Source: Fidelibacterota bacterium (lineage in GTDB: Bacteria > Fidelibacterota > UBA8477 > JABMPR01). From it: a DNA stretch of 64,000 nt. The number at the start of each line of letters is the position of its first letter. Position 1 is the stretch's first letter. The DNA lies in assembly GCA_018650445.1 (NCBI GenBank), contig JABIFX010000253.1, positions 65,136 through 129,135 of the forward strand. The letters run 5' to 3'. Positions 28,959-46,955 of this stretch are shown here, in pieces. A program made the position numbers and the translations under genes. The notes under the pieces were generated by a model, which was not told the DNA's origin, ran no database searches, and saw only the letters and a list, made by a program, of their open reading frames with translations.

Positions 28959-28968
28959 ATTTCTATCC

Positions 28969-30610: not shown

Positions 30611-31723
30611 TTATACAAGAATCATTTCTTCATTGATCAGAGTGAAAGCAGAAACACCGACACGATTGTGGATTTCTGTTAAATGCAAAACCCCATTTTC
30701 ATAATCCACGAGACGATTAATCAGGTAAAATAGATACATACTCGTGAGCCAGTTAGTGAACTCCTGTTTTGAGCCGAGATGCTTCTTCATATTGACCATA
30801 ACCCAGGAAAAGTGCTGCCAGACATCCAGACAAGAATCACATGAACGATCAATCCCCGTACAACACCGACGGGTTGTTTTCAAGTCCGCATTATAGGCAC
30901 GAAAGTGGGGGCTATATGGGTTTCCATTGGTTAGTCGAGCTGCATTGACAGGATTGTTTTCACTGATGGTGGTACAGACATTATAGCCCCATTCCTGATC
31001 ATACAAGCGTCCTGTGGAAATGACCTCGCTGAGGTAGGTGGAGAGATAGATTGAGTCGGGGTATTTGATGATAACTTTACTGATTTCAGCCCTGACTTCT
31101 TTAAAGCCTTTTCGGTGGTCTACGGATCCACCCAGATTGGTCAAATCACTATAAAAATTAAACAAAACTCGATTTCCATTCGCCACACATTGAGCCACAA
31201 CATCACTAATTTCATGGGCATTACCCGGCGTAACTGTGTAATACCAGAAGGCTCGAGAATCATTCGCATAGTTTTTTAAAGCGATCGCAAAAATGTCTCT
31301 TTTCCCAGCCGTCCTCATCTCTGCATCCGTGCCATGGTTCCCCCAAACCGAAACACCTATGGGCATTCGCTCAAGACCTTCCACAGGTATCGGAATAATA
31401 CCATTTGTAGAGACATTCATTTTGAAGTTATCGTAAATCTTTTTCAGTCGAGATAAGCTTAAACTTGGCTCACCACCCACAATGGTCACAAAATTAGTTC
31501 CCCTAACCAATTCCTGCTCAATAAAAGCATCAAATTCGGCTTCATTTGTGGGGGACTGGGTAACATCCATTCCTTCAGAAAAATAATAGCAGCCGTTGCA
31601 GCGGAGATTGCATTCGTGGGTCAAATCAATTGAAATTGATTTCATGGACCCTGCATCTCGTATCTCTTGATACAGGTGCTTCAAGAAGGGATCGGCGAGG
31701 TATGTTTTTAGCGCTTTGGACAT
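30611..31723 (-). CDS. radical SAM protein of unknown specificity with C-terminal Cys-rich region
   Basis: 370 aa with 'THECNLRCNGCYY' (CxxxCxxC), 'VTIVGGEPSLS', and a C-terminal 'TTRRCCTGIDRSCDSCLD'. Confidence 0.7.
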   Translation of the reverse strand: MSKALKTYLADPFLKHLYQEIRDAGSMKSISIDLTHECNLRCNGCYYFSEGMDVTQSPTNEAEFDAFIEQELVRGTNFVTIVGGEPSLSLSRLKKIYDNFKMNVSTNGIIPIPVEGLERMPIGVSVWGNHGTDAEMRTAGKRDIFAIALKNYANDSRAFWYYTVTPGNAHEISDVVAQCVANGNRVLFNFYSDLTNLGGSVDHRKGFKEVRAEISKVIIKYPDSIYLSTYLSEVISTGRLYDQEWGYNVCTTISENNPVNAARLTNGNPYSPHFRAYNADLKTTRRCCTGIDRSCDSCLDVWQHFSWVMVNMKKHLGSKQEFTNWLTSMYLFYLINRLVDYENGVLHLTEIHNRVGVSAFTLINEEMILV

Positions 31724-31788: not shown

Positions 31789-32835
31789 TCAAACCATCCC
31801 GATCAGTTTGAGTTTCCAGTCTTCAAAGCTCTCACCGACCAGATTGGCTTCGTACTTCTGATGGGGTTTCTCGAGTTTTACTGAATGAATTTTGCCAGAT
31901 TCAACCCTGAAGCTGCCTGCTATCTGTTCTCCCTTAATTTCCATTTCATCATAATGGATAAACACATCCCGGGAAATCTTTAATGGTTTACGTGGACCCG
32001 TGTCCTCAATATGATTCAAAAATGAATCTGATCTTAACATGGCTCCGATTTGTCCTGCACGCTCAATTTCAGCCATGGACAAACCACTGGGATTCAAATT
32101 TCGCTGAAAATGCTTTTCAAATTCCTGAATAAGTTGATCAGCAACTTTATCCATGGATATATCGCAACCTAAATTGTCGAGGGTGATCATGTGATCCTGC
32201 ATGGCTTGTTTGCCTAACTCACGGTATGCTTCGTTCGGTGCTGACCACATAGCTGCAGCGGAATCAAAATCGAAATCAAAGAGGATATTTCCGACAACGA
32301 TGCTGGCCTCCCCAATCTGGCCACCGCCAATACCAGCAATTCGTTTTCCATTTATCTCTATCTCATGACTCCCGACCAGTTTTGCCTCAATATCTGGATA
32401 GTGTGAGAGGGTGTTGACTACAGGGGTCAACATTTGCTCATAAACTTTGGTAGAATTGGCAGCCACACGATTCGAATGGAAAATGCATTGATAAAACAGT
32501 TGATCTTTATTAAGAAAAGTTCCCCCGCCTCCAATTTTCCTGCGAATAATAGGAATCTCCAATTTGTCACTAGCTTCGCTGTCAAAGACATGCTCCAGTT
32601 TTTGGTGGTATCCCAAACAAACATACGGGTCAGCCGGCTGAGAAATGATAATGGTATCAGGTGTCTCTGCCGTCATTAGCTCTGCAACCGTATGGTAGGC
32701 TGCCTGGGTCTGCCAACCAGGGATCTGACCCAAATAGAGCAATCGGATTGAGCTTGATTCAGATTCAATATCCTCAGCGTGTTTGAGGGGTTGGTTTATC
32801 GGAATATTGAATCGTGTGACAACAGCTTGAGTCAT
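31789..32835 (-). CDS. lipoate-protein ligase-like protein (BPL_LplA_LipB family), copy 2
   Basis: 348 aa. 'RRKIGGGGTFLNKDQLFY' and 'INGKRIAGIGGGQ' correspond to the RRxxGGGxV and GxKxxG (catalytic Lys) motifs of LplA-type enzymes. Confidence 0.7.
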   Translation of the reverse strand: MTQAVVTRFNIPINQPLKHAEDIESESSSIRLLYLGQIPGWQTQAAYHTVAELMTAETPDTIIISQPADPYVCLGYHQKLEHVFDSEASDKLEIPIIRRKIGGGGTFLNKDQLFYQCIFHSNRVAANSTKVYEQMLTPVVNTLSHYPDIEAKLVGSHEIEINGKRIAGIGGGQIGEASIVVGNILFDFDFDSAAAMWSAPNEAYRELGKQAMQDHMITLDNLGCDISMDKVADQLIQEFEKHFQRNLNPSGLSMAEIERAGQIGAMLRSDSFLNHIEDTGPRKPLKISRDVFIHYDEMEIKGEQIAGSFRVESGKIHSVKLEKPHQKYEANLVGESFEDWKLKLIGMV

Positions 32836-32857: not shown

Positions 32858-33952
32858 TCATTTCGTTGCGCTGGAGAGCTGCATCTGATCTTGAATTACA
32901 TTCAGCTCCATCCCGGTTGGTTTGAAGGGATAGTCACGATATTCTTCCCCTGGCCGATAGGAACCATAAGGACGGTTACAAGCCATTGCCCCATCCCGAT
33001 CAGGACAACCATTGGTCATAAATGGCAATCCCGTATCAATAGATTCCTGCACCATGGCATCTTCTGATTCAATGGCTGAAATATGATCCTGCTCATCAAA
33101 TAGAATGGCCTCGCGTTCCAGGTCTTTTTCCTCTATGAGGTATTTGGCCAGTTGAATTCTGCGGTGCCTTTGGATGGGTTGACGCTCCTGGTGCTGGAGG
33201 GCAGTTCCTTCTTCTGGATTGAATGAGAAGAGATATCCAGCTATTTCCTCACCCTTCAGCTTATAGAACATATCAATCAGATCTCGATCTGTTTCTCCTA
33301 AGCCAACAATCAGGTGGCAATTGACATTCATGGGTCCATAAATCTCCCGGGCCGCTCTCACCATTTCCCAGTGATAATCCCAGTCGTGGGGTCCCCGGGC
33401 TTCTTTGCCGCGGGTTTTAATAAACAATTCTTCAGTAACTGCATCCAGACCATACCCAATGATGTCGATGCCCTCTGCCTTGAGCTGTTTTAAAAAGGGC
33501 ACATCCATGGTGGTGGCATTTACCAATCCGGATAAGGGAACTCCAGGTGCTGCGCTGTGAATCCGCCGGGTAATCTCCAGCATATCATCATTGGCACGAT
33601 GGTCCTGTACTTGTGAAATACAGACACGTCCAACCGTGCTTTCAGCTTCCTTCTCAGCAATTTTTTCAGCGATTAATTCCGTGGAGAAAAGAGGCCAATC
33701 CACCCGAATAAAGCTATTCTCTTCAGCCAGTCCAGGACGCTCTCTCGCCAATCCACAGTAACTACAGTTGGCAAAGCAGCCCTCAGGATAATTTTGAAGT
33801 AGGTTGATGCAACCACAGCCACAGCCATGGATGCGACCCGGCTTTAACCCCAGTTCAATAGCTGCTGCCATACTTATGCGGACATAATCAGGACTGATAT
33901 TCAACAGTTCGGCCTGTTCTTGTGATGATAATTTTAATGCTTCAGCGTTCAT
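32858..33952 (-). CDS. radical SAM protein, candidate LipS-type lipoyl synthase component
   Basis: 364 aa with 'CFANCSYCGLA' (CxxxCxxC) preceded by an extra 'HGCGCGCINL' Cys cluster. It sits between two ligase-like genes. Confidence 0.65.
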   Translation of the reverse strand: MNAEALKLSSQEQAELLNISPDYVRISMAAAIELGLKPGRIHGCGCGCINLLQNYPEGCFANCSYCGLARERPGLAEENSFIRVDWPLFSTELIAEKIAEKEAESTVGRVCISQVQDHRANDDMLEITRRIHSAAPGVPLSGLVNATTMDVPFLKQLKAEGIDIIGYGLDAVTEELFIKTRGKEARGPHDWDYHWEMVRAAREIYGPMNVNCHLIVGLGETDRDLIDMFYKLKGEEIAGYLFSFNPEEGTALQHQERQPIQRHRRIQLAKYLIEEKDLEREAILFDEQDHISAIESEDAMVQESIDTGLPFMTNGCPDRDGAMACNRPYGSYRPGEEYRDYPFKPTGMELNVIQDQMQLSSATK

Positions 33953-34106: not shown

Positions 34107-35096
34107 TCACCACGTCACTCCGCAACACGCGTTAATAAATTTGGACTCCAGACCTTTCTCCTTGGCATAGCTGATTATTCCTTCTGAGGGAAAGGCTATC
34201 CCATTTAAACCGGCGTTAATGGCAAGCTGGTCAATGTCTATTTTTAAGGCTCCTAATGGACGGGCACATCCCAGTAAAATTGGAGACTGAGGAAGAGCCC
34301 GGCGGGCTGTTTCAAAAAAGTCCCCGATTTCATTGATTGATGGAGGCTTAACACCCTCCATTCCTGTTCCGGTTAAGGGGAGTAGAATCACCAGAACCAA
34401 TATTTTTGGTGAGTATTTTTTAATCATCTCCAGAGCAGCCCATTCACCATTCATTTTGCCAAAATAGTGACCTATGACAATATGAGGAATGGCTGGAATC
34501 CCATAACGATCCAGACGTTCTAGAACTTTATCATAATCTGCTGGTGTTGCATTGAGATGATAGACTTCTGAGATGGTTTCCTGGTCCCCAATTATATCCA
34601 GCATAACTCCATCGATATCCACTTCACTCAAAGCTTGACAGGTTGCTTCATCAGGCAAGCCTGGATGCACTCGAATAAGCAGATCAAGTTCACTTCTGAT
34701 GCGTTTCATATCAGCAATATGAGGTAGCAAAGGAACCTGGTTCATAGCATTACTGCCACCAGATATGAGCAAACCTTTGGCACCCTTCTCTTTTAAACTG
34801 ACAGCCATATCAAAAAGAGAACCATCAAAACTGGGTAAATCCAGCATCTTGTCCAGCATTTTGGTGTTACAATGCTCACAATTCAGAGCACAATTACTGC
34901 CAGTCACGCTGATTGATACAAACTCCCTTAACGATCCTGAAAACTCTGAGGTTTTATGTGGTTTTAAACCTGGACCATAAAAAGTTATTTCATTGGGGAA
35001 ATGTTCCTGACGGATATCAAAACATTCAGGGTTGACTAAATTTTTTGAAGTATCTATCACGGGTTGGGGTGGGCTGATAATGGTGAGCTCAGACAT
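34107..35096 (-). CDS. radical SAM protein, candidate LipS-type lipoyl synthase component
   Basis: The track ORF starts at GTG 35102. ATG 35096 ('MSELTIISPP') overlaps the upstream stop by 8 nt. 'SNCALNCEHCN' is the CxxxCxxC motif. Confidence 0.65.
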   Translation of the reverse strand: MSELTIISPPQPVIDTSKNLVNPECFDIRQEHFPNEITFYGPGLKPHKTSEFSGSLREFVSISVTGSNCALNCEHCNTKMLDKMLDLPSFDGSLFDMAVSLKEKGAKGLLISGGSNAMNQVPLLPHIADMKRIRSELDLLIRVHPGLPDEATCQALSEVDIDGVMLDIIGDQETISEVYHLNATPADYDKVLERLDRYGIPAIPHIVIGHYFGKMNGEWAALEMIKKYSPKILVLVILLPLTGTGMEGVKPPSINEIGDFFETARRALPQSPILLGCARPLGALKIDIDQLAINAGLNGIAFPSEGIISYAKEKGLESKFINACCGVTW

Positions 35097-36216
35097 GCAC
35101 ACTTCCCGGGCTTACAAAACATCCATATGGATCAACAGCTACTTTCTTCGCTGATACTTCAGCTCGCTTCAGTGCCATCTCCAGGGCTCGAATTAAGGCT
35201 TCCTGGGGCAGGGTCGCTAAATCATCTGACCAGCGTTTATAAACTTTGTTAATTGTTCCCAGGATAAGTTTGCTCTGGCTGGAGTGCCAGCGTAGTGATT
35301 GCTCAAGATCAGCAATGGCATTCTCAGAAGTAAAGAAGTCGCCTCCGATGAAGGTTGATTTGATCATCTTCCCAGCCAGGACCATCCTGACATCCAATAA
35401 TCCGCCAGCCGTCTTGACCTTGGCCTTACCAGTTGAATCTGGTACATCTGTTGTCTGATAGATCCAGTTTTTATCTAAATATTTTGAATTTTCAAGGTTT
35501 TGGGCTTCAACCAGCTCAGCATCAGAATAGTTTCCCTTTTGAATATCCACCTGAAAAGCTTCCTGATATCCTTCAAGAATTTTTTCCCGAACCTCATCGA
35601 CTGAAAGATTTTCCCCAACTTCTCTTCTCACGGTTGTGGTTCTTTCAGCAACCGTGGAAATTTCCTTGTCTGACAATTTCTCAAAAGGTGTATTAAGTAC
35701 ATTCAACATAAGGGGCACATCCAGATCAACCAACAGGGAAGCATGAAATAGCAAGCCACCAGAAGGGGTTCGGTGCAGTCCCAAACCGGCTATTTTTTTA
35801 CCGGCAATTTCCAGGTCATTTTTACGTCGAAATTCAATAGAACATCCCAGCGAAGATAAACCAGCTACTATTCCCCGGGAAAAGCGGGCCATTTGTTCAC
35901 GCACGCCAGCATATGAATCGTCGGATTTACCAGGAATAGCCAGGGCTACTCCGAGCTGTTCTGATCCCATAATGATAGCTCCACCACCAGTGGGACGTCG
36001 ATTTACTGAGATGCCGTGCTCTAAGCAATAATCCAGGTTAAGTTCACTTTCAATATTTTGGAAGCGACCTACCAGGGCACAGTGTGATTTATAAGTATAA
36101 AGCCTTAAAGTCTGGGGAGATTGCCCGGTACCTACCCGGCTAGCCAACATTTCATCAATAGCCAGTCCTGAAGTTGCTGAGACTTGATTGTCTTCGATAT
36201 AGCGTGAGATGTTCAA
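35089..36216 (-). CDS. lipoate-protein ligase-like protein (BPL_LplA_LipB family), copy 1
   Basis: 375 aa. The TTG start overlaps the LbpA stop (TTGA). Motifs are 'NRRPTGGGAIIMGSEQL' and 'IAGKKIAGLGLH'. Confidence 0.7.
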   Translation of the reverse strand: MNISRYIEDNQVSATSGLAIDEMLASRVGTGQSPQTLRLYTYKSHCALVGRFQNIESELNLDYCLEHGISVNRRPTGGGAIIMGSEQLGVALAIPGKSDDSYAGVREQMARFSRGIVAGLSSLGCSIEFRRKNDLEIAGKKIAGLGLHRTPSGGLLFHASLLVDLDVPLMLNVLNTPFEKLSDKEISTVAERTTTVRREVGENLSVDEVREKILEGYQEAFQVDIQKGNYSDAELVEAQNLENSKYLDKNWIYQTTDVPDSTGKAKVKTAGGLLDVRMVLAGKMIKSTFIGGDFFTSENAIADLEQSLRWHSSQSKLILGTINKVYKRWSDDLATLPQEALIRALEMALKRAEVSAKKVAVDPYGCFVSPGSVHV

Positions 36217-36647
36217 TCAAGCATACCCTGTGTCTCAAAGCGTTCAATTTCCTCATTCCACCAAGCTGTCACTTGGTCACCAGAGATCATGGTGTTGGCT
36301 TCTACAGCCCATTGTGTCGGTTCAATTCTTACTAACCAACCCTCATCATAGGGTTTTTCATTTACCAGCAATGGATTTCTCAATGCGGCTTCGTTTCTCT
36401 CCATAACGATGCCTGAGAGGGGGGCAATAAGTTCGCTGGTCATCTTGGCGGCTTCGATAGACCCCATGGCTTTACCTAATTCAACAGGTGAACCTACAGT
36501 TGGCAACATCAAATAGGCCAATTCTCCCATGGAATCCAAACCCAGTTCATCCATACCAACCAGGAGTTGACCTGAATCATCCTCCTTTATCCAAAGGTGA
36601 TTTGAGTTATAGTAAAACCCCGGCTTAAACTTGAATTGCTGCTTCAT
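36213..36647 (-). CDS. lbpA: GcvH-like lipoate-binding protein (LbpA-type), copy 1
   Basis: The track ORF is 173 aa. I prefer ATG 36647 ('MKQQFKFKPGFYYNSNHLWIKEDD'), because the longer form overlaps the upstream gene by 110 nt. The lipoyl-lysine context is 'GSIEAAKMTSELIAPLSGIV', followed by 'PYDEGWLVRI'. Confidence 0.8.
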   Translation of the reverse strand: MKQQFKFKPGFYYNSNHLWIKEDDSGQLLVGMDELGLDSMGELAYLMLPTVGSPVELGKAMGSIEAAKMTSELIAPLSGIVMERNEAALRNPLLVNEKPYDEGWLVRIEPTQWAVEANTMISGDQVTAWWNEEIERFETQGMLD

Positions 36648-38676
36648 CTGCCCCTGCTTCCACGGTTGGTTCTGGTAAATCCATGGCATCCATGACATAA
36701 TCAATGATATCCATGACTGCCATATCTGCTTCATGTCCCGATGTTTTTACTGCATCAGCATACATGGTCATGTCCTTGGGACAGGCCACGGTGAAATTAT
36801 TCACACCCACCGAAACGGCTTCTTCGATCCGATTTTCACTGGGTCGCTGATTCATATCCTCATGATCAGGCATCCATACCCGACCACCACCGGCACCACA
36901 GCAAAAACTGTTTTCCTTGTTACGGGGCATTTCAACAGTTTCGACACCACATAACTTCATGACTTCTCTGGGGGCATCATAAACACCATTGTAGCGACCG
37001 AGGTAACAGGGATCGTGATAGGTGGCCTTCATTCCCAAATTCTTCTTTAGTTTGATCTCGTCCTGTTGAATTAAGTCCAATAGCAAAGATGAATAATGTT
37101 TGACTTCAAACTCTCCACCAAGCTTTGGATATTCATTCTTAAGAGTATTAAATGTATGGGGATCTGTGGTAAAGATTTCTTCAAAATCACACTTTTGGAT
37201 GGATTCAATATTCTGTTCTGCCAGCACCTCAAAGAGTCCTTCTTCACCGACTCTGCGAACATCATTTCCTGCTGATTTCTCTCCTTTACCCATGATACCA
37301 AAATCAATTCCGGCTGCATTCAACACCTGGGCGACTTTGCGGGTGGTATCTTGACAATTCTGATTAAAACTGGCAAAATCTCCTACATACCACAGGTATT
37401 TTACTGGTTCCTTTGTCGCATCTTTGATTTTGAAATCCAATTCCTTGGACCATTTGGAGCGTTTACGGGCAGACTCATTAAATGAATTCCCCTGTTCATC
37501 CAGACTGCGCAAGACATCAGCCAGTTCATCAGGCATTTTTGCATCAAATACTTGTTTCCGACGAAGCTCCACGATATCCATCAAAGGTTCATTACCTACG
37601 GGACAGACTTGTACACAAGCATAACAAGTGGTACAGGACCAGAGTGCATCATCAGAAATGGCGTAATCCAGCATGGGTAGGTCTGCACTTCCATTGATAA
37701 CATCCGTGGCTTTATCCCGCACAAAATAGCGCTTGTTGATTTCAAGTGCGGACGGGCTGAGCGGCGTACCACTCTCATGGGCCGGGCAAACTTCATGACA
37801 ACGGGTACACATGATACAAGCCCATGTATCCAGGACTTGCGGCCAGGGTAAATCTGTGAGCGTTGTAGCTCCAGGAGATGTCGGATCCGAGATGGCATCC
37901 ATGGCTCCTCGGGGTGTCTGGCGACCTAAGGCCAGGTTCACCGGGGCAATCATCATATGAATGTGCTTAGAACTGGGGAAATAAGGAAGAAAGACCACAA
38001 TAAGACCCATGGCCAGCCACCAGGTTACATGGATACCTGTTTCCAGGGCACCTGGGGACCAGCTAGTGAATAATCCTGAAAGGATACTTGCTGTGGGTAA
38101 CCAGGCATCTGTATGACCATTTTCTGCTAAATGAAGGGCGGTTCCCATCCAACGAGATCCCACGTGGATCAAAATAAAAATGCCTACGATAAGTGAGTCT
38201 TTTTTGACACCACCAGCCGCCACATTGGGGTGGAGTTTTACATTGGCATTAAATTCCAAAACCTTGGGTTTTTTAATAAAGCGACGGTAGAGGAAAAAAA
38301 GCATCCCTGTTATTACCAGAACACTGAACAGGTCTGCAAAAAGATTAAATACTCCTGCAATGGAACCAGCACCGATGGTGGTCCAACCAGCCACATAGGC
38401 TTCCAGAATATCGTTCACATTCACCAGCAGATAAAAACTAAAACCAAAGAATATGAAGCTATGCATAAAACTTACAAATGGTCTGGCTTTAGAGATTGTT
38501 TTTTGGAGTCCGATTTCGATTAGAGTAGTGACAAAGCGACTGATAAGTTTATCAAACCTATCCATCTTGCCACCACGCGAAACGATTTGATAGATTTGTC
38601 TAAATCTACCAAAGGCCAGACTCAGGCAAACAATGACTAATACAATAAATCCAATTTGTTCATAGGTTGATAGCAT
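36625..38676 (-). CDS. membrane-anchored HdrD-like Fe-S oxidoreductase (N-terminal multi-TM His-rich domain + 2x[4Fe-4S] + 2 CCG domains; Etf:quinone oxidoreductase EtfD/EMO-like or DsrMK-like)
   Basis: 683 aa. The N-terminal ~250 aa has about 5-6 TM helices with conserved-looking His ('FMHSFIFFG', 'LIHVGSRW', 'GIHVTWWL', 'KHIHMM'). The rest has 'CIMCTRCHEVCP', 'CTTCYACVQVCP', 'YHDPCYLGRYNG' and 'FCCGAGGG'. Confidence 0.75.
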   Translation of the reverse strand: MLSTYEQIGFIVLVIVCLSLAFGRFRQIYQIVSRGGKMDRFDKLISRFVTTLIEIGLQKTISKARPFVSFMHSFIFFGFSFYLLVNVNDILEAYVAGWTTIGAGSIAGVFNLFADLFSVLVITGMLFFLYRRFIKKPKVLEFNANVKLHPNVAAGGVKKDSLIVGIFILIHVGSRWMGTALHLAENGHTDAWLPTASILSGLFTSWSPGALETGIHVTWWLAMGLIVVFLPYFPSSKHIHMMIAPVNLALGRQTPRGAMDAISDPTSPGATTLTDLPWPQVLDTWACIMCTRCHEVCPAHESGTPLSPSALEINKRYFVRDKATDVINGSADLPMLDYAISDDALWSCTTCYACVQVCPVGNEPLMDIVELRRKQVFDAKMPDELADVLRSLDEQGNSFNESARKRSKWSKELDFKIKDATKEPVKYLWYVGDFASFNQNCQDTTRKVAQVLNAAGIDFGIMGKGEKSAGNDVRRVGEEGLFEVLAEQNIESIQKCDFEEIFTTDPHTFNTLKNEYPKLGGEFEVKHYSSLLLDLIQQDEIKLKKNLGMKATYHDPCYLGRYNGVYDAPREVMKLCGVETVEMPRNKENSFCCGAGGGRVWMPDHEDMNQRPSENRIEEAVSVGVNNFTVACPKDMTMYADAVKTSGHEADMAVMDIIDYVMDAMDLPEPTVEAGADEAAIQV

Positions 38677-38798
38677 TAGGACTGACTCCTGTGTTAATAA
38701 CTTTGTTTAAGATTAATCACTACGAGGTTGAGAGTTGCTGATAGCTCTCTTCCCCACTTTACCCTTCGTGTTGATAAAACTGGGAAATATCTAAAGAC

Positions 38799-39020
38799 TT
38801 AAGTCTGTGAGGAGGACTCTTCTTTCTTGGCGGTACTAAGTTTGAGGGGCCAGTACAGTGGGCAAAAGCTCATGAAGCTGGTAAGCAGAAAAATAACTGC
38901 TACAGCGCCTAAAACGATAGCTGCCGTTCCACTGATTTGATCCATGAAATATAACACTCCAATTAATACTGCCAGAGTTGCCCGAATCGCTCGATCGATT
39001 GAACCCATATTTGTTGGCAT
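38799..39020 (-). CDS. DUF2892-family small membrane protein (YgaP C-terminal-domain-like)
   Basis: 73 aa. 'MGSIDRAIRATLAVLIGVLYF' and '...FCPLYWPL' are typical of DUF2892. Two TM helices. Confidence 0.65.
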   Translation of the reverse strand: MPTNMGSIDRAIRATLAVLIGVLYFMDQISGTAAIVLGAVAVIFLLTSFMSFCPLYWPLKLSTAKKEESSSQT

Positions 39021-39176
39021 AATTTTCTTCCTTCTTTTTATTGCGTATACCGGACTATTAAAAATTCTCTATGAGCCAGACGACTGAAAAAATCAACCCA
39101 AGACAAACCACGCATACGGCGAGCAGTTTTAGGGCTTTTTTACCTGCTGAATCGTCACTTGGATGTCCCTGATCTG

Positions 39177-40121
39177 TCAATCCAATTCCTCTAATAGTTC
39201 TTCCACTACATCAAACAAATCTTCCGTCATTCCATAATGAGCGACGTCAAAAATAGGTGCGTTCTTATCTGTGTTGATGGCAATGATCGTAGATGTCGCT
39301 TTCATACCTTCGATATGCTCTGGAGCACCAGAAATACCCAGCGCGATATACACCTTCGGTTTTACCTTCATGCCGGATTTTCCAACCTGGTGAGATTTTG
39401 ACATCCAACCTGCATCAACGATAGGACGGGAGCAGGCAATATCTGCTTCCAGAGCTTCTGCCAGCTCTTCAGCAACTTCGATATCATCTTTACTGCCAAT
39501 ACCCCGGCCAACAGCCACCAGAATATCACTCTGAGTGATATCAACATCAGCTGCCTCTGGCTCAATCAATTGTTTAAAGCGAACCTTTCCGGCTCCGGCC
39601 TCAACTGCTGATGCTTCCACGGCTGGTGACCCGGAAACTCTCCCGGTATCCGCATTGAATGATCCTGCCAGAACCATAGAAATGAGGGCTCCATCCACAC
39701 TGCTAACAACATTCATTTTGCCACCATACATTTGACTTGTACAGGTAAATCCACCTCCTGCAGCCACGATATCTGCACAAAAACTTACAGTAGGAATATC
39801 GAGTGCTGTAGAAACAGGATTTGCTATATCAATCCCCATCGATGTAGAACCAATCATGATCAGATCTGGAGAATTTGCTGAAACGACAGATTTTACTGCT
39901 GCAGCGTATGCTTCAGGATTATAGTCATCACCAACTTCAGCCGTAATGACTGTATCCGCTGCTCCCATTTGATCGGTTTGACCACTCATACTGCCAAAGA
40001 CCATAGCTGAACATGACCCACCAGTAGATTGTGCAATTTCTTTGGCCTTCCCCAACATTTCAAATGTGATATCCTGGAATTCACCCTTCAGGTGTTCGGT
40101 TACAACGAGAATGTTAGCCAT
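39177..40121 (-). CDS. etfA: electron transfer flavoprotein, alpha subunit
   Basis: 314 aa. The C-terminal FAD domain reads 'VAVGRGIG...CSRPIVDAGW...QVGKSGMKVKPKVYIALGISGAPEHIEGM'. The start overlaps the etfB stop (TGATG). Confidence 0.9.
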   Translation of the reverse strand: MANILVVTEHLKGEFQDITFEMLGKAKEIAQSTGGSCSAMVFGSMSGQTDQMGAADTVITAEVGDDYNPEAYAAAVKSVVSANSPDLIMIGSTSMGIDIANPVSTALDIPTVSFCADIVAAGGGFTCTSQMYGGKMNVVSSVDGALISMVLAGSFNADTGRVSGSPAVEASAVEAGAGKVRFKQLIEPEAADVDITQSDILVAVGRGIGSKDDIEVAEELAEALEADIACSRPIVDAGWMSKSHQVGKSGMKVKPKVYIALGISGAPEHIEGMKATSTIIAINTDKNAPIFDVAHYGMTEDLFDVVEELLEELD

Positions 40122-40867
40122 CAGGCCACCCCCTTATCTTTCAATACGGCCATTAAGGCTTCAACATCATCCAGCATTTTAGCTCCCAAACCCTTTTCAG
40201 GTGCGGCCATACTGCTAATGGCACTTCCAGCTCCAGCCCCTAAATCACCGGCATCCATTTCCTGGATGGTTTCAGTTTGTTGGATTTGTCTCACTTTACT
40301 CACTGGAGCATAGCGAGGTGCTTGAGCCGCAGCTTGAATCCCCAACACTGCAGGAAGATCTACTTCAAACTCGCCCAACATACCGCCAGAGTATTCCTTC
40401 TGTACTGTAGCCTGTCCACCAGAGACGCTAACACCAGCCACGACACTGATGCAGGGGACTGATAGATATTCAGCCATAATGGGTCCCAAATGACCATCGC
40501 GACCATCAGCAGATTGCACTCCTGCCATAACCAGATCAAAACCCTCTGTGGCAACAGCATTGGCAAATGCTTTGGCTAATTGATGTATATCTGTGGGGCT
40601 GCTACCGTTTAATTTGATCGCCTTGTTTGCACCTTTGGCAATGGCAGTAAATAACATTTTGTCGACATCTTCCCCGTCAAAAGCCATTGCAACCACCTCG
40701 TCAGCCGCACCACTCTCTTTTAAGAGCAGCGCTTCCTCGAGTGCTTGATCGTCAAATTCATTTAATTTTAACTTGACCTCTTCAGCATCCAGAGCTTTTC
40801 CAGTGGCATCCACCTCCAGGTCTTCTACCAGGTCTGGTACTTGTTTTAAAGGCACGACGATCTTCAT
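40121..40867 (-). CDS. etfB: electron transfer flavoprotein, beta subunit
   Basis: 248 aa. 'MKIVVPLKQVPDLVEDLEVD' and 'DLVMAGVQSADGRDGHLGPIMAEYL' are typical of EtfB. GGAG SD upstream. Confidence 0.9.
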   Translation of the reverse strand: MKIVVPLKQVPDLVEDLEVDATGKALDAEEVKLKLNEFDDQALEEALLLKESGAADEVVAMAFDGEDVDKMLFTAIAKGANKAIKLNGSSPTDIHQLAKAFANAVATEGFDLVMAGVQSADGRDGHLGPIMAEYLSVPCISVVAGVSVSGGQATVQKEYSGGMLGEFEVDLPAVLGIQAAAQAPRYAPVSKVRQIQQTETIQEMDAGDLGAGAGSAISSMAAPEKGLGAKMLDDVEALMAVLKDKGVA

Positions 40868-40881
40868 ATTTCTCTCCTCAT

Positions 40882-41112
40882 TTACTTCATACGCTGGATA
40901 AAAAAGTTTCTCGTATCACCAGCTTCTTCTATATCTAATAATTTCTGTCCGGACGACCTGCACCAGGCGTTGATATCAGGGACTGATCAGGGGTGAGCAC
41001 TACTCAACTGAAGAACGCCCCCGATAGGGAGATTCCTCAAAGCCTGCCAGGATCGAATCACTGGCATACCCATTCCACAAGGTCCCGTATCAATGTGCAA
41101 ATCTACTTTCAT
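40882..41112 (-). CDS. TusA/SirA-fold small protein (76 codons) interrupted by one in-frame TGA at codon 42 (plus-strand 40987..40989): candidate selenoprotein or recent pseudogene
   Basis: Found by hand; it is below the ORF-track size cutoff. The ATG at 41112 overlaps the upstream stop (TGATG). Translation is MKVDLHIDTGPCGMGMPVIRSWQALRNLPIGGVLQLSSAHP-TGA-SVPDINAWCRSSGQKLLDIEEAGDTRNFFIQRMK-TAA. This aligns without gaps to the TusA at 47408..47644 (ELDCKGMNCPLPILKTKKQIDTMGSGEVLKMIATDPGSINDMTSWTKRTGNELL...YVFFIKKT). The natural stop lies 14 nt before the etfB ATG. Confidence 0.55.
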
Positions 41113-42410
41113 CAGGCAGTGTCTTCGCCTTCACTCATGCAATAATCAAGAATTTCAATGATATCCATGACCAGTAGCTTACCATCATTATTTGTAGATT
41201 TAACAGCATCTTCAAAACGTGAGACTTCATAGGGGCAGCAGACAGCTAATATCTCAGCACCTACTTCCACAGCTTCCTTGACCCGGTTTTCCGATAGACG
41301 TTCAGCAGAGTTATCCGCCATGAGTCCATCCAACCACATGCCTCCACCACCTCCACCGCAGCAATAGGCTTGTTCTTTGTTTCGATACATTTCCATATAT
41401 TCGATCTCAGGGACGGCATTCAAAAGAGTGCGCGGGGCATTGTATTCGCCATTATGACGACCTAAATAGCAGGGATCATGAAAAGTAACCTTCTTGGGGA
41501 AGGGCCGTTTCATCAGCTTGGCTAAATCATCAACCCGTTCTTCCAGGAGTTGGGTATAGTGCTGTAAATTGTATTCTTTTCCGGTAACAGCAGGGTAGAA
41601 ATTCTTAAAAGCATTGTAAGCATGGGGATCACTGACGACCAATTTGTTATGTTCATATTTATCAAACTGGATTCCATTATGTTCTGCCAATTCTTCAAAT
41701 AAACCGGATTCACCCACCAGACGCTGAGAATCACCATCACATTTTTCTTCTTTTCCCAGGATGCCAAAATCAATCCCCAAACGATTAAACACTCGTACAG
41801 TTGCTTTGGCGGCATCATTTCCACGATTGTGGTAGGAGAAGTAATCACTGACGTACCATAAAACATCTACTGGCTCTGGGTCCGTTTCTTTTGACAAATC
41901 GCGAACGGGTTCTTCAAATTTGCGTAGCCATCCCACTCGTTTACGGGCTGATTCGCCCATAGGATTGCCATATTCAGCAACATTCTGCAACATGTCCTGT
42001 ATTTCACCAGGAACATTGCCATTCAATACTGCCTGTTCTCTGGCTGCAGGGATAATCTGAATCATATCGACTTCTTTTGGACAAACACGAAGACAATTTG
42101 AACAAGTCGTGCACAGCCATAAATCATCATGATCGAAAAAATCCATACCGGTCTGAAGCTTTCGAAAAATTTTGCGTGGTCCATAGCTACCTACATTATC
42201 GACAGGACAAACCCCAATGCATTGGGCACATTGATAGCAGGCATTGATGGATTTAGCACCGGGTAACTCACGTAATTTTTCGAGACCGTCAATATCATAG
42301 GTCAGGATCTCACGGGGTTCATACATCTTGTTCCACTCACCGGATAGATCAACCCCATCTACTACGACATTGTCTTTCTGGACAAATTTTTCATATTTAT
42401 GTTCAGACAT
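41112..42410 (-). CDS. soluble HdrD-like Fe-S protein (2x[4Fe-4S] + 2 CCG domains; HdrC/HdrB fusion type, 'sHdrB3'-like)
   Basis: 432 aa with 'CYQCAQCIGVCP', 'CTTCSNCLRVCP', 'FHDPCYLGRHNG' and 'YCCGGGGG'. It is clearly paralogous to the C-terminal two thirds of 36625..38676. Confidence 0.8.
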   Translation of the reverse strand: MSEHKYEKFVQKDNVVVDGVDLSGEWNKMYEPREILTYDIDGLEKLRELPGAKSINACYQCAQCIGVCPVDNVGSYGPRKIFRKLQTGMDFFDHDDLWLCTTCSNCLRVCPKEVDMIQIIPAAREQAVLNGNVPGEIQDMLQNVAEYGNPMGESARKRVGWLRKFEEPVRDLSKETDPEPVDVLWYVSDYFSYHNRGNDAAKATVRVFNRLGIDFGILGKEEKCDGDSQRLVGESGLFEELAEHNGIQFDKYEHNKLVVSDPHAYNAFKNFYPAVTGKEYNLQHYTQLLEERVDDLAKLMKRPFPKKVTFHDPCYLGRHNGEYNAPRTLLNAVPEIEYMEMYRNKEQAYCCGGGGGGMWLDGLMADNSAERLSENRVKEAVEVGAEILAVCCPYEVSRFEDAVKSTNNDGKLLVMDIIEILDYCMSEGEDTA

Positions 42411-42412
42411 TA

Positions 42413-43168
42413 TTAATTCATCTCCATACTTTTTACCCCAAGAATCTGCTGGGTCAACTCAGTCAGCTCAGGTAATATCCGATTAAATTCTTGGGAAAGT
42501 TTCACGCGAAAAACTGTATACATGTAGACAGCATACACACAGGCAAAAAAGATATCTGTTCCGAATAATCCTGCTCCAGCACTGGAAAAACCAACTCGGT
42601 GCCCTACAGCATTCACCAGCGCGGTGGTTTGTCCTATCTTGACATACAGCTCCCCTGGAGTCTTGGCTTCAAGATCAATATCGTCTTGTAGAACCAGAGA
42701 TAATGCTCCGGTATGTTTCTTGAAATCCCAGATCCAGTTTGTCCAAAGCCAATATTTTTGCGGATTAGAGAAGTGCAATAATTCGCAAATTAGATTGAAG
42801 CGCATCGTATCGTTCATCATTTCCAGTGCCTGACTGGCTTGATTAAATCTGACATCCAGGGCTTCATCGCCGTAGAGTAAAGTTGCCAATGTTTCTCTCA
42901 GGGATTCAATTTCTATCGCCTTCAAGATTTTATTCGCTTTCCGCTTAATGGAAAAAATAGAAGCAATGAGCTGCTTGAATTCATCCGCAGTCAGTTCTGC
43001 AATGTGCTCTTCAGACAACAGCTCTGAAAACAATCTGGCTTTATTCTCCAGGCGTTGCCCGATATCTTCCAGATCAGTGGAAGTTGCCAATTTGGTCGCT
43101 TCTTTCATAAACTCCAAAGCGGCTTCAGAGTCTACAACATCTGCAATATTTACTTTATCGTAGAGCAT
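42413..43168 (-). CDS. hypothetical protein at the 'hyp' position of shdr clusters
   Basis: 251 aa with no motif I recognise. It sits between the HdrA-like and HdrD-like genes (gaps of 0 and 2 nt). Confidence 0.5.
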   Translation of the reverse strand: MLYDKVNIADVVDSEAALEFMKEATKLATSTDLEDIGQRLENKARLFSELLSEEHIAELTADEFKQLIASIFSIKRKANKILKAIEIESLRETLATLLYGDEALDVRFNQASQALEMMNDTMRFNLICELLHFSNPQKYWLWTNWIWDFKKHTGALSLVLQDDIDLEAKTPGELYVKIGQTTALVNAVGHRVGFSSAGAGLFGTDIFFACVYAVYMYTVFRVKLSQEFNRILPELTELTQQILGVKSMEMN

Positions 43169-44236
43169 TTAGGCTGGTTGTAACTCAGATTTTCTTATAA
43201 AACTACAGGCCTTCATCACGGCTGAGCCACCCATGGAAACAGAATCTTCCAAATCAGCTGGACCGGCGGCCGCACCAACAACAAAAACACCAGGGACCGT
43301 GGTTTCAACTGTATTCAAAGCTCCACCAGTAGTTTCTATATAGCCATGTGGTTCGAGGGGTAGCTCGAAGGTATCAGCCATTTCTACGGTTCCATCACTG
43401 GGCTCCATGCCTACTGATAGAATAACTACATCCATGGCAACTTCCATGGGACGACCCATGGTGGTATCTTCACCCTTTACAACCAGCGTGTCACCTCGTT
43501 TTGTTACTTCGGTAACAATACCACGGATAAAATTCACATTATAGTCTTCCTGGGCTTTCCAATAAATTTCATCTTCCCAGAAGCCGTAGGTACGCATATC
43601 GATATAAAAGACAAAAACGCGTGCATCTGGAGCGGCTTCTTTGACTTCAATGGCTTGCTTACAAGCAATGCCGCAGCAGACCTTGGAACACCACTGATTT
43701 CCTATCTGACGATCTCTACTTCCAACACATTGGATAAAACAGACGGTTTTGGGGGCTTCTCCAGTTGACGGTCGGGCAAACTCATCTGCCTTGAGCATTT
43801 TCTCAGCATCCACCAGAGTGATCACATCTTCAAACTCATAGTAACCATACATCTGGGTTTCTTTGCCTGGATCAAAATGTTTGAAGCCTGTGGCAACGAT
43901 GACGCTACCCACTTCTAGAATTTCTTCACCTCCGGCATTTTTCACAGTCACTTCCATATTGGGCGCATCACCCTTGGAACCGACAACCGTGGTACTCAAA
44001 CGAATATCTATAGATGGATTGTCCGTAATAGCAACAATCATCTCACCCATGGCCTCTTCCGGACTGCGCATATCCGGGGTCAAAGCAGCATAGTCGGCTG
44101 AAATAGGCATTCCGCCCAGAAAATCGGCCTTTTCAATCAAAATAGCCTGATACCCGAGATCAGCGATCCCACGCACAGCCTCTAAACCGGCAGGTCCACC
44201 ACCGATAACTAATATTGGTTTACTTGACATCTGCAT
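43169..44236 (-). CDS. hdrA: short HdrA-like FAD/[4Fe-4S] flavoprotein (sHdrA-type)
   Basis: 355 aa with 'ILVIGGGPAGLEA' and 'CFIQCVGSRDRQIGNQWCSKVCCGIAC' (four-Cys cluster motif). It lacks the ferredoxin and MvhD-binding domains of methanogen HdrA. Confidence 0.85.
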   Translation of the reverse strand: MQMSSKPILVIGGGPAGLEAVRGIADLGYQAILIEKADFLGGMPISADYAALTPDMRSPEEAMGEMIVAITDNPSIDIRLSTTVVGSKGDAPNMEVTVKNAGGEEILEVGSVIVATGFKHFDPGKETQMYGYYEFEDVITLVDAEKMLKADEFARPSTGEAPKTVCFIQCVGSRDRQIGNQWCSKVCCGIACKQAIEVKEAAPDARVFVFYIDMRTYGFWEDEIYWKAQEDYNVNFIRGIVTEVTKRGDTLVVKGEDTTMGRPMEVAMDVVILSVGMEPSDGTVEMADTFELPLEPHGYIETTGGALNTVETTVPGVFVVGAAAGPADLEDSVSMGGSAVMKACSFIRKSELQPA

Positions 44237-45428
44237 CCTCCCATGTCATAAAATCCAGTTCTCCACTTTCAATTCTTCCAGCGATGGCTTCAAATTCTCC
44301 CCATGCTTTTTTGTAGTCGATTCCCATCTTTTCCAGCAACGGCTTATTATCAACTCCATGCCAGTGAAGCTGACAAACGTTATACGGATGAGCACCCATG
44401 GCTAAGGCAGCGTACTGTGCATCGGATAGCACAGGAATGCCCACATTTCTACCATGTGCCTTTGCAGCAAATTGGCTTTTATCCAGAGTGGTAACACAAC
44501 CCGTGTCATGGGTCAGGGTCACATCAGGATCCACTTCTTCCTTCATTCGTTCAATTTTTCTAATGGTGGCAAAAGAGCGCGAAAAATCCCTGCTCACCAG
44601 AATATGCCTGAAGCCGAATCCACAGCAATCATGCCAGGTGGAATAATCAGCTGCAGTAGATCCCAGAGCTTCAACCAAGCTGGTTACCACAGCAGTACGT
44701 TGTCCATCATATAATTCGCGGTCATAGATAGCATCCTCTACAACCAGTTTGTGGTAATGACAGGCGGGATGAACTGTGACAGTTAGATCGCTAAAATCCA
44801 GAACCTGTCTTTCTGCAATTCGGTGCCGCATGACATGGATCCATTCAGAGTAATGCACGATCTCTTCTGGGAAGACAAAGGGCATTTTCAATTTGTCCAT
44901 TATGCGACGCACCTGGTCTCTTAGTTCAGGGTGATGTATGATTTCTTCCCGAGTTTCCTTATAATGACCAAAACTGGTTCCACAATGGATCAGGGGGAAA
45001 TATCCATCCTGTTTGGCTTGAGCAAAGTTACGTACAGCTACAGAAGCCTGGGCGGCGGAGTTTGATGTAGAAGAAGCATAGTAATTCCAGGCCGTACAGG
45101 ATGATTGATCCTTGGGATCATAGTAATCCAGACCAAACTGTCTGTGTAGCCAGAAAATGGCTGTTGAATACCCTGGAATATGTCCACACTGTCCGCAGGA
45201 TTTATGATGCCAAGTATGTTCGATGGGTATCTTTTTTTTCCTGCCATATTTGGTCTCTACTTCTTCAAATGGTTCGGGGACTCGGTGTACTTCCAACTCA
45301 CCTTTAGCTTCTAATTCAAAGAGCTTCTCCCGGTAATCTTCCGTAGGTGGTTTGCCCTTACGAACATACTCTCGCATTGGCGACTTTTTCTCGGTATGTA
45401 CTGCCGGTGCTTGGGTTGTCTCTGCCAT
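44220..45428 (-). CDS. hdrB: HdrB-like CCG-domain protein (sHdrB1-type)
   Basis: 402 aa with 'WHDCCGFGFRH', 'HPACHYHK' and 'HDTGCVTT'. It overlaps the hdrA-like start by 17 nt. Confidence 0.8.
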   Translation of the reverse strand: MAETTQAPAVHTEKKSPMREYVRKGKPPTEDYREKLFELEAKGELEVHRVPEPFEEVETKYGRKKKIPIEHTWHHKSCGQCGHIPGYSTAIFWLHRQFGLDYYDPKDQSSCTAWNYYASSTSNSAAQASVAVRNFAQAKQDGYFPLIHCGTSFGHYKETREEIIHHPELRDQVRRIMDKLKMPFVFPEEIVHYSEWIHVMRHRIAERQVLDFSDLTVTVHPACHYHKLVVEDAIYDRELYDGQRTAVVTSLVEALGSTAADYSTWHDCCGFGFRHILVSRDFSRSFATIRKIERMKEEVDPDVTLTHDTGCVTTLDKSQFAAKAHGRNVGIPVLSDAQYAALAMGAHPYNVCQLHWHGVDNKPLLEKMGIDYKKAWGEFEAIAGRIESGELDFMTWEDADVK

Positions 45429-45461: not shown

Positions 45462-46181
45462 TCAATCATCCAGGATATTCTCGAAGTCATCTATATCATA
45501 TCCATTGTCTTCCAGAAGCTCTTCCATCACTTCTTCCAGAATCATATAAATTCCCTCATCAATCCCTTCGATGAGCTCCAGGTTACCGGTCAATTTCCAG
45601 ATCATATAAAGTTCGAGTCTGGTTTTTTCAGAAACATCCCAGGCCAGTTCAGTGGTATGCAGCGTCTCCGGGGGAATGGCTCTACGCCAGACATCCAGAT
45701 TTTCAGCAACTGCTTTTACATCATTACCCCAGTCTGGGAAAAAGTCGGGTTGAAGCATATCAGGGGCTACCTGAGTTCCGGTGGCCATGACTTTGTAGAT
45801 AATGCGACTGTAAGCTTGTAAAGCATCTTTAGCAGATTGCAAACCGCGGCGGACAGCTGCATCGCGCATCATGAGAATAATTCCACCGGGATTATTCTGA
45901 CGGGGGCAACGGGTACACGAGTAACATTGAGAGCAATCCCAGACGCTATCATTTAACAGCTCATAGAAGGTGTCCACATCTTCACGAGCCATGGTCTGGG
46001 CAAAAACGCGGGGACTGAAATCATAAAATCTGGCGGAGGGACATGCGGCAACACAAATTCCGCATTCATAGCAACCGTACAAATTATTTCCATATCGCAT
46101 GTCAGCCTTGACTTCATTGAAGAGTTCTAATTTCTCTTCATAGGGGACATCCATATATTTTGCATCTTTATAAATCGACAT
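45462..46181 (-). CDS. hdrC: HdrC-like 2x[4Fe-4S] ferredoxin subunit (sHdrC1-type)
   Basis: 239 aa with 'CYECGICVAACP' and 'CSQCYSCTRCP'. Confidence 0.8.
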   Translation of the reverse strand: MSIYKDAKYMDVPYEEKLELFNEVKADMRYGNNLYGCYECGICVAACPSARFYDFSPRVFAQTMAREDVDTFYELLNDSVWDCSQCYSCTRCPRQNNPGGIILMMRDAAVRRGLQSAKDALQAYSRIIYKVMATGTQVAPDMLQPDFFPDWGNDVKAVAENLDVWRRAIPPETLHTTELAWDVSEKTRLELYMIWKLTGNLELIEGIDEGIYMILEEVMEELLEDNGYDIDDFENILDD

Positions 46182-46493: not shown

Positions 46494-46955
46494 TTAGCCT
46501 TCAAAGCCTTCGCAATGAATGCACTCGCCCATATCCTTTTCAGCCATATAAGCATCAAATCCAACAATGGCATCTGCTCCGTTGACCAAGGCACTTGCCT
46601 CTTCATCGAAATTGCTGGGGTTGATTTTGACAATCCAGCCAGCTTTATAAGGACTCTTATTAAGGAGTGTACCATCACCTGCAACAGCTTCATTGGCCTC
46701 CATAATCTCACCGGCAAAGGGAGTTTTAACGGGGCCAACCCATTTACCACTTTCTACAGTGGCTACACTTTTTCCCAGCTTGACTGAGCGACCCACTTTT
46801 TTAGGACGACAATGGATAATACTTCCAGCCATGCTTTGGGCGATATCAGTCATCCCCAAATCGACGGTTCCATCATCATTCTTGCGTACCCATACGTTAT
46901 ACTCAACGTGGTACAGAAGATCATCAGGTAACATGCAGTTTTTTAATTCAGCCAT
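46494..46955 (-). CDS. lbpA: GcvH-like lipoate-binding protein (LbpA-type), copy 2, with C-terminal CxxC extension
   Basis: 153 aa. The lipoyl-lysine context is 'VATVESGKWVGPVKTPFAGEI', followed by 'PYKAGWIVKI'. There is an extra C-terminal tail 'DMGECIHCEGFEG'. Confidence 0.8.
   Translation of the reverse strand: MAELKNCMLPDDLLYHVEYNVWVRKNDDGTVDLGMTDIAQSMAGSIIHCRPKKVGRSVKLGKSVATVESGKWVGPVKTPFAGEIMEANEAVAGDGTLLNKSPYKAGWIVKINPSNFDEEASALVNGADAIVGFDAYMAEKDMGECIHCEGFEG

Follow-up and report, generated by a model that had tools for sequence, protein, structure and literature searches.

A putative flavoprotein link between sulfur oxidation and quinone in a type II sHdr gene cluster of a Marinimicrobia genome

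The sHdr-LbpA system is a widespread cytoplasmic route of sulfur oxidation, and the path by which its electrons reach the respiratory chain is unsettled, above all for type II systems. This question is raised by a 64,000-nucleotide stretch of the genome of a Fidelibacterota bacterium (assembly GCA_018650445.1, contig JABIFX010000253.1, positions 65,136 to 129,135; hereafter the window), in which genes for the two subunits of an electron-transfer flavoprotein (EtfB and EtfA) and for a membrane iron-sulfur oxidoreductase (EMO) stand among shdr genes. The cluster is a copy, in a Marinimicrobia genome, of the type II sHdr gene cluster known from earlier publications, and the region is its electron-output half; the window's EMO and aconitase are identical in sequence to deposited proteins of 'Candidatus Marinimicrobia / Neomarinimicrobiota' metagenome-assembled genomes. 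The best explanation of the locus, and in our judgment a probable one, is that electrons from sHdr/LbpA sulfur oxidation pass from the soluble protein sHdrB3 to EtfAB, then to EMO and on to quinone.

The genes concerned belong to one long minus-strand array (~30.6-48.5 kb of the window). Those from shdrC1 to emo are listed here, with the evidence for each in brackets:

45462-46181, minus strand: sHdrC1, two-cubane ferredoxin-like subunit (Pfam Fer4_8/Fer4_9; NCBIfam HdrC-like model below cutoff; synteny in 30+ loci)
44220-45428, minus strand: sHdrB1, CCG-domain subunit, proposed as the catalytic subunit in PMC11094781 (Pfam CCG; NCBIfam HdrB-like model below cutoff)
43169-44236, minus strand: sHdrA, short HdrA-like flavin adenine dinucleotide (FAD)/iron-sulfur flavoprotein (Pfam Pyr_redox_2; NCBIfam HdrA models cover the core only)
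42413-43168, minus strand: sHdrH, 251-residue conserved hypothetical protein of shdr clusters (position kept in related loci)
41112-42410, minus strand: sHdrB3, 432 residues, soluble fusion of a two-cubane Fer4 part and a CCG/non-cubane part (Pfam Fer4 and a single CCG match)
40881-41112, minus strand: TusA-like frame, 76 codons long, whose codon 42 is an in-frame TGA, candidate selenoprotein (sequence and conservation)
40121-40867, minus strand: EtfB, small subunit, apparently non-bifurcating (PF01012)
39177-40121, minus strand: EtfA, large subunit, carrying the FAD domain (PF01012 and PF00766)
39058-39180, minus strand: 40-residue open reading frame with a TTG start and one hydrophobic segment, probably not a gene (mechanical list of open reading frames)
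38799-39020, minus strand: YgaP-like two-helix membrane protein of 73 residues, DUF2892 type, accessory (PF11127, E 7e-20; two hydrophobic segments)
36625-38676, minus strand: EMO/EtfD-type membrane iron-sulfur-heme oxidoreductase, 683 residues (Fer4 dicluster and CCG; phmmer and Foldseek to 9OJN)
37927-38676, minus strand: EMO residues 1-250, five-helix cytochrome b-like domain (hydropathy, positive-inside count, conservation)
37582-37839, minus strand: EMO residues ~280-365, two cubane [4Fe-4S] sites (Pfam Fer4_8/9/10; eight conserved Cys)
36682-37419, minus strand: EMO residues ~420-665, CCG/non-cubane domain with the proximal site only (ligand table in 9OJN numbering and alignment)

The type II sHdr layout, shdrC1B1AHB3-etfAB-emo, has been defined and a hypothesis for its electron path given (PMC11094781), and the window agrees with that definition throughout. 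Genes for sHdrC1, sHdrB1, sHdrA, sHdrH and sHdrB3 form one syntenic cluster, etfAB lie within it with emo adjacent, and lbpA, lipoate ligase and synthase genes and TusA/DsrE sulfur transferases are linked to it. The sHdrB3 of the window has Fer4 and a single CCG match, hence one non-cubane site, as in the published description of this protein as a C2-B2 fusion binding only one non-cubane cluster (PMC11094781). Marinisomatota are among the phyla reported to carry type I or type II systems (PMC11094781), and the putative role of the cluster is dissimilatory sulfur oxidation. Earlier work had drawn an 'hdr cluster II' that includes etfAB and a long 'hdrC' combining transmembrane and CCG parts (Justice 2014, PMC4378227) and had remarked on the linkage of EtfBA to the cluster (Cao 2018, PMC6067878); for the electron path through EtfAB and EMO, Kümpel 2024 is cited by Tanabe 2024 (PMC11094781). 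Both the arrangement and the idea of the electron path are therefore already published and the locus brings no new architecture; the comparative refinements given below (an EMO clade, a single-cluster signature, a non-bifurcating Etf and a TusA-like selenoprotein candidate) are modestly useful and may be new.

Gene neighborhood and phylogeny of the Etf/EMO module

An EMO alignment, scanned against GTDB species genomes, gave 80 loci, which were searched by tblastn with the window proteins. Wherever the flanking sequence suffices, EMO homologues of 47% identity or more all lie within the order shdrC1-B1-A-H-B3-etfB-etfA-emo, whereas shdr and etf neighbors are absent from homologues at 39-42% identity; because of this division, the Etf/EMO module is, judged by its neighborhoods, dedicated to sHdr and not a housekeeping module. 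The sources of the sHdr-linked loci are Marinimicrobia, Calditrichota, SAR324, Acidobacteriota, Poseidoniia/'Methanobacteriota' archaea and Chloroflexota, with Anaerolineae, Thermomicrobium and Oscillochloris among them, and the eight-gene order recurs in ~30 complete loci. The Etf and EMO of the window belong to clades confined to such clusters.

A reading of the locus made earlier from the letters alone (the sequence-only reading) had named a housekeeping Etf as the finding that could overturn its proposal. In this alternative, EtfAB and EMO would form a general fatty-acid or amino-acid oxidation module that merely sits beside shdr, an idea that draws on beta-oxidation in Syntrophus and mycobacteria being the best-known setting of the EMO/EtfD family and on a gene for an AMP-binding (acyl-CoA-synthetase-like) protein 22 kb away. 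Against it stand the recurrence of the gene order across bacterial and archaeal phyla, with Etf and EMO syntenic with shdr in all informative loci, and signatures of the sHdr-linked EMO and Etf that are seen neither in other EMOs nor in the Etf beside a non-sHdr EMO (locus L064). No acyl-CoA dehydrogenase is encoded within the 64-kb window, and we regard this alternative as very improbable.

The sequence-only reading had proposed placing its two HdrD paralogues, sHdrB3 and EMO, in a phylogeny, and a neighbor-joining tree, built from the soluble parts with E. coli GlcF and GlpC as its root, assigned them to separate clades: the sHdrB3 sequences group together as the sister clade of all EMOs, and the sHdr-linked EMOs form a clade of their own, apart from Mycobacterium smegmatis EtfD and other EMOs. 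Inside the sHdrB3 clade and the sHdr-linked EMO clade, the branching orders mirror each other.

The gene order admits some variation. Additional genes interrupt the module in some type II loci, over approximately 1.5 kb between shdrB3 and etfB in locus L004 (~3550-5080) and over approximately 4.4 kb between etfA and emo in locus L024 (~4900-9350). For the Poseidoniia and SAR324 EMO homologues of 63-90% identity a role in beta-oxidation was first suspected and then dropped, synteny having revealed their sHdr linkage. Of the two small membrane proteins that had been described ahead of emo, one stands, namely the YgaP-like protein (38799-39020), whose gene, located between etfA and emo, occurs in only a few of the related loci (L004, L019) and survives in the 90%-identical relative L085 (9724-10000) as a decayed remnant, 'VIVIIFLLTSMLNFC'. 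The other, the 40-residue frame with a TTG start, is unsupported, no counterpart having been found in the L085 spacer.

Iron-sulfur and heme sites of EMO and sHdrB3

The C-terminal part of EMO had been described as a close paralogue of the soluble HdrD-like protein, now recognized as sHdrB3, and BLASTP bears this out: EMO residues 269-662 align with sHdrB3 residues 42-425 at 38% identity over 405 columns (E 5e-85), and the peptides quoted in support are present. Ligands of the iron-sulfur clusters were tabulated in the numbering of EtfD (9OJN) for sHdr-linked EMO (n=45), sHdrB3 (n=35) and other EMO (n=31). The eight cubane Cys, which match the D3/D4 ligands of EtfD, are kept in all three groups. 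At the distal non-cubane site, the ligands C503, C538, C581 and C584 are replaced by D, N/S, D and T/S in 45/45 sHdr-linked EMO (D, S, D and T in the window) and by non-ligands or at most one Cys in 35/35 sHdrB3 (D, C, D and A in the window), and all four Cys are kept in 31/31 other EMO. The single Cys difference that the sequence-only reading had pointed out between the paralogues ('EKCDGD' in the soluble protein, 'EKSAGN' in the membrane protein) is present as described; it is one column of this wider loss and carries less weight than was given to it, as both paralogues lack the whole distal site.

The proximal site is retained in altered form. Its first four Cys and His583 are found in all three groups, and the fifth Cys (C712) is Asp in 44/44 sHdr-linked EMO (one of the 45 being gapped), Glu in 35/35 sHdrB3 and Cys in 30/30 other EMO (one gapped). 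The window EMO accordingly has C557, C592, C593, C632 and H507, with D635 replacing the fifth Cys, and its sHdrB3 has four Cys and the His, with Glu in that place. Since FadF and DgcB are reported with the same loss (PMC13083937), the missing distal cluster is a trait of a subfamily and does not exclude these proteins from the EMO/EtfD family. Homologues lacking it have been proposed to receive the electrons of ETF at the proximal cluster (PMC13083937), and in a cryo-electron microscopy preprint on the EMO-ETF complex of Syntrophus aciditrophicus (SaEMO) the ETF flavin is positioned at the non-cubane clusters. According to the EtfD paper, the His renders the proximal cluster non-catalytic (PMC13083937), and for this reason sHdrB3 looks like an electron-transfer module rather than a disulfide reductase, one that would share its presumed Etf-facing site with EMO. 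Because sHdrB3 and EMO have in common the distal loss, the His of the proximal cluster and an acidic residue for the fifth Cys, they may offer a matched pair of docking sites to a single shuttle flavoprotein.

The membrane part of EMO was compared with M. smegmatis EtfD, which phmmer matches over both transmembrane and soluble parts (9ojn_A, E 1.5e-82) and which is the top Foldseek match of the predicted EMO model (9ojn, E 2.7e-26); this AlphaFold2 model is mediocre (15 sequences, pLDDT 72, pTM 0.56) and served the fold search only. The N-terminal ~250 residues had been described as a His-containing multi-helix membrane domain, which agrees with five predicted transmembrane helices (7-25, 67-85, 112-130, 152-170 and 215-233). 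Positive charges are concentrated in loops 26-66 and 131-151 (positive-inside count), placing the N-terminus outside and the iron-sulfur domains in the cytoplasm.

Conservation of heme ligands across homologues, the lack of which would have spoken against the proposed role, is complete among the sequences compared. E6, H72, H171, H216, H238 and H240 are found in 45/45 sHdr-linked and 31/31 other EMOs. Of these, H72 and H240 align with the proximal heme ligands H78 and H241 of EtfD (H87 and H251 of SaEMO), R132 and R292 are the counterparts of the heme-propionate Arg137 and Arg306 of EtfD, and F229 is that of its menaquinone-stacking Phe230. Pfam detected neither a NarI nor a cytochrome b family in the isolated membrane domain (E up to 10), and the heme assignment consequently rests on the 9OJN alignment and the literature. 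By analogy with these proteins, the putative function of EMO is to accept electrons from ETF and reduce (methyl)menaquinone. Helices TM4 and TM5 carry two further His, H171 and H216, at their periplasmic ends; these are kept in both EMO clades and absent from EtfD. In the alignment with EtfD, H216 stands six residues upstream of M. smegmatis H223 (SaEMO H233), with A222 opposite H223. The position and conservation of H171 and H216 suggest a possible second, distal heme site.

In a rival reading, electrons would run the other way, from quinol, driven by the proton-motive force, through a di-heme EMO to Etf and sHdrB3, feeding reducing power to sHdr/LbpA, for instance for the re-reduction of a disulfide or lipoamide. 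The two His suggest a distal heme and transmembrane transfer, such a heme arrangement occurs in the Syntrophus EMO as part of a redox loop coupled to the proton-motive force, and direction is a property that sequence cannot give. In Syntrophus, however, the force-driven direction is still from ETF to quinone; by established thermodynamics the oxidation of sulfane sulfur or dihydrolipoyl groups would be a low-potential donor for which quinone is the natural acceptor, and carriers of type II clusters are known sulfur oxidizers (PMC11094781). We consider reverse flow unlikely, though the most serious competitor of flow toward quinone.

The type of Etf and the proposed electron path

Whether EtfAB splits its electrons or simply relays them bears on any such path. 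Both subunits have their best PDB match in the Methylophilus W3A1 ETF (EtfB with the beta subunit, 1o94_C; EtfA with 1o94_D), and the pair has the ETF and ETF_alpha domains of canonical ETFs, closest to those that contain adenosine monophosphate (AMP). Discriminators of bifurcating Etfs were taken from the literature and aligned with reference sequences recovered from the PDB searches. The RxGV motif of the small subunit is found neither in the window, which reads A-E-E-V there, nor in any of the relatives. The window EtfB, whose C-terminal arm reads GAGSAISSMAAPEKG, also lacks the GxxSPTxV motif in that arm, and the tails of the relatives show none, as far as can be said without a formal scan; the only SPT tripeptide of the window EtfB is at residues ~90-92, outside the C-terminal arm, the C-termini of the references not being part of the alignment. 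In EtfA, Ser or Ala takes the place of the TRPxFGG Arg in 38/38 sHdr-linked sequences, the window reading 'TSQMYGGK' against the bifurcating 'TRPxFGGN'. Position 122 of EtfB is Asp in 37/37 relatives, including the closest (L001), as in human ETF, and Gly in the window only. On this evidence the sHdr-linked Etf family looks like a non-bifurcating electron shuttle with one FAD, and the Gly of the window like an isolated substitution within it.

The sequence-only reading had left room for an Etf that takes part in bifurcation or confurcation, which would couple sHdr chemistry to nicotinamide adenine dinucleotide (NAD(H)) and a second acceptor. This has in its favor that the Gly122 codon (40502-40504) lies at a position invariantly Gly in bifurcating Etfs (Gly123 of A. 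fermentans) and that the scores of EtfA against the bifurcating 5ol2_A and 6fah_A nearly equal that against W3A1 ETF. The sequence motifs disfavor it, since the relatives have the Asp of human ETF at the diagnostic Gly, both small-subunit motifs are missing within the bounds given above, the Arg lost from EtfA is the one essential for bifurcation in Thermotoga (R140), and the nearest structural relatives of EtfB are canonical AMP-binding ETFs. Bifurcation or confurcation here appears quite improbable, less so only than the housekeeping alternative. The sHdr-linked EtfA, for its part, has an FAD-site signature, 'QVGKSG' with 'GISGAPEH(I/L)EGM' (residues ~245-275, nt ~39297-39389), where canonical and bifurcating Etfs instead have 'QVGQTG' with 'GISGAIQH.AGM'; this signature could tune the flavin potential or the choice of partner.

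The order of etfB and etfA after the gene of the soluble HdrD-like protein had been read correctly from the letters; they do not follow it directly, as a 244-bp spacer between shdrB3 and etfB holds the TusA-like frame. Its TGA (40987-40989, codon 42) sits where canonical TusA has Gly in 'DPGS', and gene callers shorten the frame to 41 residues (P0121). The TGA and the frame downstream of it are kept in loci L085/L086, L001 and L044; conservation in L009/L010, the loci from SAR324, is partial. In the 34 codons past the TGA, the window and L085 differ by seven synonymous changes and one non-synonymous change, and the full-length copies compared codon-wise (window, L085, L001 and L044) end at a common stop in 4/4. 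This pattern points to UGA recoding, most simply as selenocysteine, and makes the frame a selenoprotein candidate. An Rfam search of the frame returned no selenocysteine insertion sequence (SECIS) family, RNAalifold gave only a 5-bp hairpin without covariation, no tRNA gene was found in the 64-kb window, and a protein search for a Cys orthologue found none.

Taken together, the parts allow a path to be drawn from sulfur to quinone. sHdr (A, B1 and C1) with LbpA would oxidize protein-bound sulfane sulfur, with electrons leaving through the two cubane clusters and then the one non-cubane cluster of sHdrB3. EtfAB, as a non-bifurcating flavoprotein with one redox-active FAD (the alpha-FAD), would take them one by one and hand them to the homologous non-cubane cluster of EMO, from which they would move over two cubane clusters and the b-heme or hemes to (mena)quinone in the membrane. 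The analysis shows the components, their dedicated co-inheritance, the ligand patterns and the topology; the contacts, the direction of flow and the type of quinone are inferred. Flow from sHdr through Etf and the membrane HdrD-like protein to quinone is what the sequence-only reading had proposed; as a reading it finds support here, and it equals the published type II hypothesis rather than a new one. A more detailed composite, in which sHdrB3 and the sHdr-linked EMO are twin docks (each with a solitary non-cubane [4Fe-4S] cluster in an unusual Cys4-His-Asp/Glu environment) for one single-FAD Etf and a selenocysteine TusA-like protein joins the relay in Marinimicrobia and SAR324, is offered tentatively, its chance of holding in every part being appreciable and short of even.

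Several points weigh against the path from sHdrB3 through EtfAB and EMO to quinone. Type II sHdr is biochemically unproven (PMC11094781), and the direction of flow is not something the sequence shows. The neighbor-joining tree uses plain distances and few outgroups, and the housekeeping test covers the 64-kb window and synteny. The EtfB of the window itself has Gly at the invariant bifurcation position, and a distal heme of the kind present in the Syntrophus EMO, an enzyme that works in a mode driven by the proton-motive force, may make the energetics less simple than those of a downhill wire. Among the rivals, reverse flow driven by the proton-motive force has the most weight, followed by Etf bifurcation and then by chance adjacency to a housekeeping module.

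What these comparisons add to the published hypothesis is precision: the Etf should hold one FAD and not bifurcate, and its docking site, on sHdrB3 as on EMO, should be a single non-cubane cluster. The separate clade of sHdr-linked EMO lends itself to use as a genomic marker. The dark and oxygen-poor ocean is rich in Marinimicrobia, SAR324 and Poseidoniia, which makes the module relevant to marine sulfur cycling.

Flanking genes and comparison with known systems

The remainder of the array, upstream of shdrC1 and downstream of emo, carries regulatory, sulfur-transfer and lipoate-related genes, the names of the lipoate-maturation set following PMC11094781 Fig. 1:

48177-48533, minus strand: ArsR-type regulator, heading the cluster (Pfam; also called in L085)
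47669-48184, minus strand: DsrE2-like protein (Pfam; also called in L085)
47408-47644, minus strand: TusA (open reading frame; also called in L085)
46971-47345, minus strand: DsrE-like protein (Pfam; also called in L085)
46494-46955, minus strand: upstream LbpA (GcvH-like), second lbpA of the array (Pfam; also called in L085)
36213-36647, minus strand: LbpA, GcvH-like lipoate-binding protein (PF01597)
35089-36216, minus strand: sLpl ligase (Pfam LplA-B_cat; name after PMC11094781 Fig. 1)
34107-35102, minus strand: radical-SAM protein, lipoate maturation (Pfam Radical_SAM)
32858-33952, minus strand: radical-SAM protein, lipoate maturation (Pfam Radical_SAM)
31789-32835, minus strand: LplA-like ligase (Pfam LplA-B_cat)
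30611-31723, minus strand: radical-SAM-like protein, lipoate maturation (Pfam)

The start of lbpA overlaps the end of emo, and its L085 orthologue, called as 143 residues, likewise overlaps emo. NCBIfam gave only sub-threshold matches and no curated family name for ten cluster proteins; sHdrH has no family match in Pfam or NCBIfam, and a sequence identical to sHdrA is labelled 'heterodisulfide reductase subunit A2' in one source. A promoter and terminator scan of 35.5-48.8 kb gave counts at chance level, from which no sub-operon structure can be claimed; the single strong sigma-70-like promoter match (48575-48602, minus strand, 11/12, extended -10 TG) lies upstream of the ArsR-type regulator.

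Directly downstream of the shdr and lipoate genes, on the same strand, lies a fused NrfC (4Fe-4S) and NrfD membrane protein (28969-30579), followed by a 952-residue molybdopterin oxidoreductase (26100-28958) and then by two Na+/sulfate-symporter-type transporters and a Usp protein (the whole group spanning 22269-30579, minus strand). NrfCD homologues adjoin many other type II clusters. The NrfCD protein, the molybdopterin oxidoreductase and the symporters may represent a Soe-like cytoplasmic sulfite:quinone oxidoreductase with sulfate export.

Among known systems, M. smegmatis EtfD (MsEMO, 9OJN) shares with the window EMO the five-helix heme b domain, the proximal His pair, the propionate Arg, the quinone-stacking Phe, two cubane clusters and a proximal non-cubane cluster with a His ligand, at ~27% identity in the structural alignment. 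The window EMO differs from EtfD in lacking all four ligands of the linear [3Fe-4S] cluster as well as the long disordered C-terminus, in having Asp for Cys712 and in its two extra His on the periplasmic side. With SaEMO (cryo-electron microscopy preprint 2026; 706 versus 683 residues) it shares a single chain of transmembrane, HdrC-like and HdrB-like parts, a His blocking the substrate site of the proximal cluster, candidate distal heme His and a conserved N-terminal Glu, a likeness drawn from the published description of SaEMO; SaEMO, however, holds a distal [4Fe-5S] cluster where the window EMO has lost the site. The EtfD homologues FadF and DgcB, compared by description only, also lack the distal-cluster Cys and are thought to take ETF electrons at the proximal cluster (PMC13083937), but serve fatty-acid or dimethylglycine catabolism and not shdr clusters. 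DsrMK and HdrDE, according to the literature, share the NarI-like heme b membrane part and the HdrD-like iron-sulfur part, whereas the window EMO is one polypeptide without the catalytic pair of non-cubane clusters; it falls outside DsrMK(JOP), scoring 46.7 bits against the NCBIfam DsrK cutoff of 400, with its membrane part fused and no separate DsrM.

The Etf resembles the canonical group 1 ETF of W3A1 (1O94), which is the best structural-database match of both subunits, and has no beta-FAD motifs; its presumed partners, unlike those of W3A1 ETF, are iron-sulfur proteins and not acyl-CoA or amine dehydrogenases. The cluster as a whole has the same genes in the same order as the type II sHdr clusters of Sulfobacillus, Actinobacteriota, Chloroflexota, Marinisomatota and others, and also shares with them the lbpA, lipoate-maturation and TusA/DsrE genes and an sHdrB3 with room for a single non-cubane cluster. 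Nothing essential differs, and the local extras are the YgaP-like gene between etfA and emo and the TusA-like TGA frame between shdrB3 and etfB.

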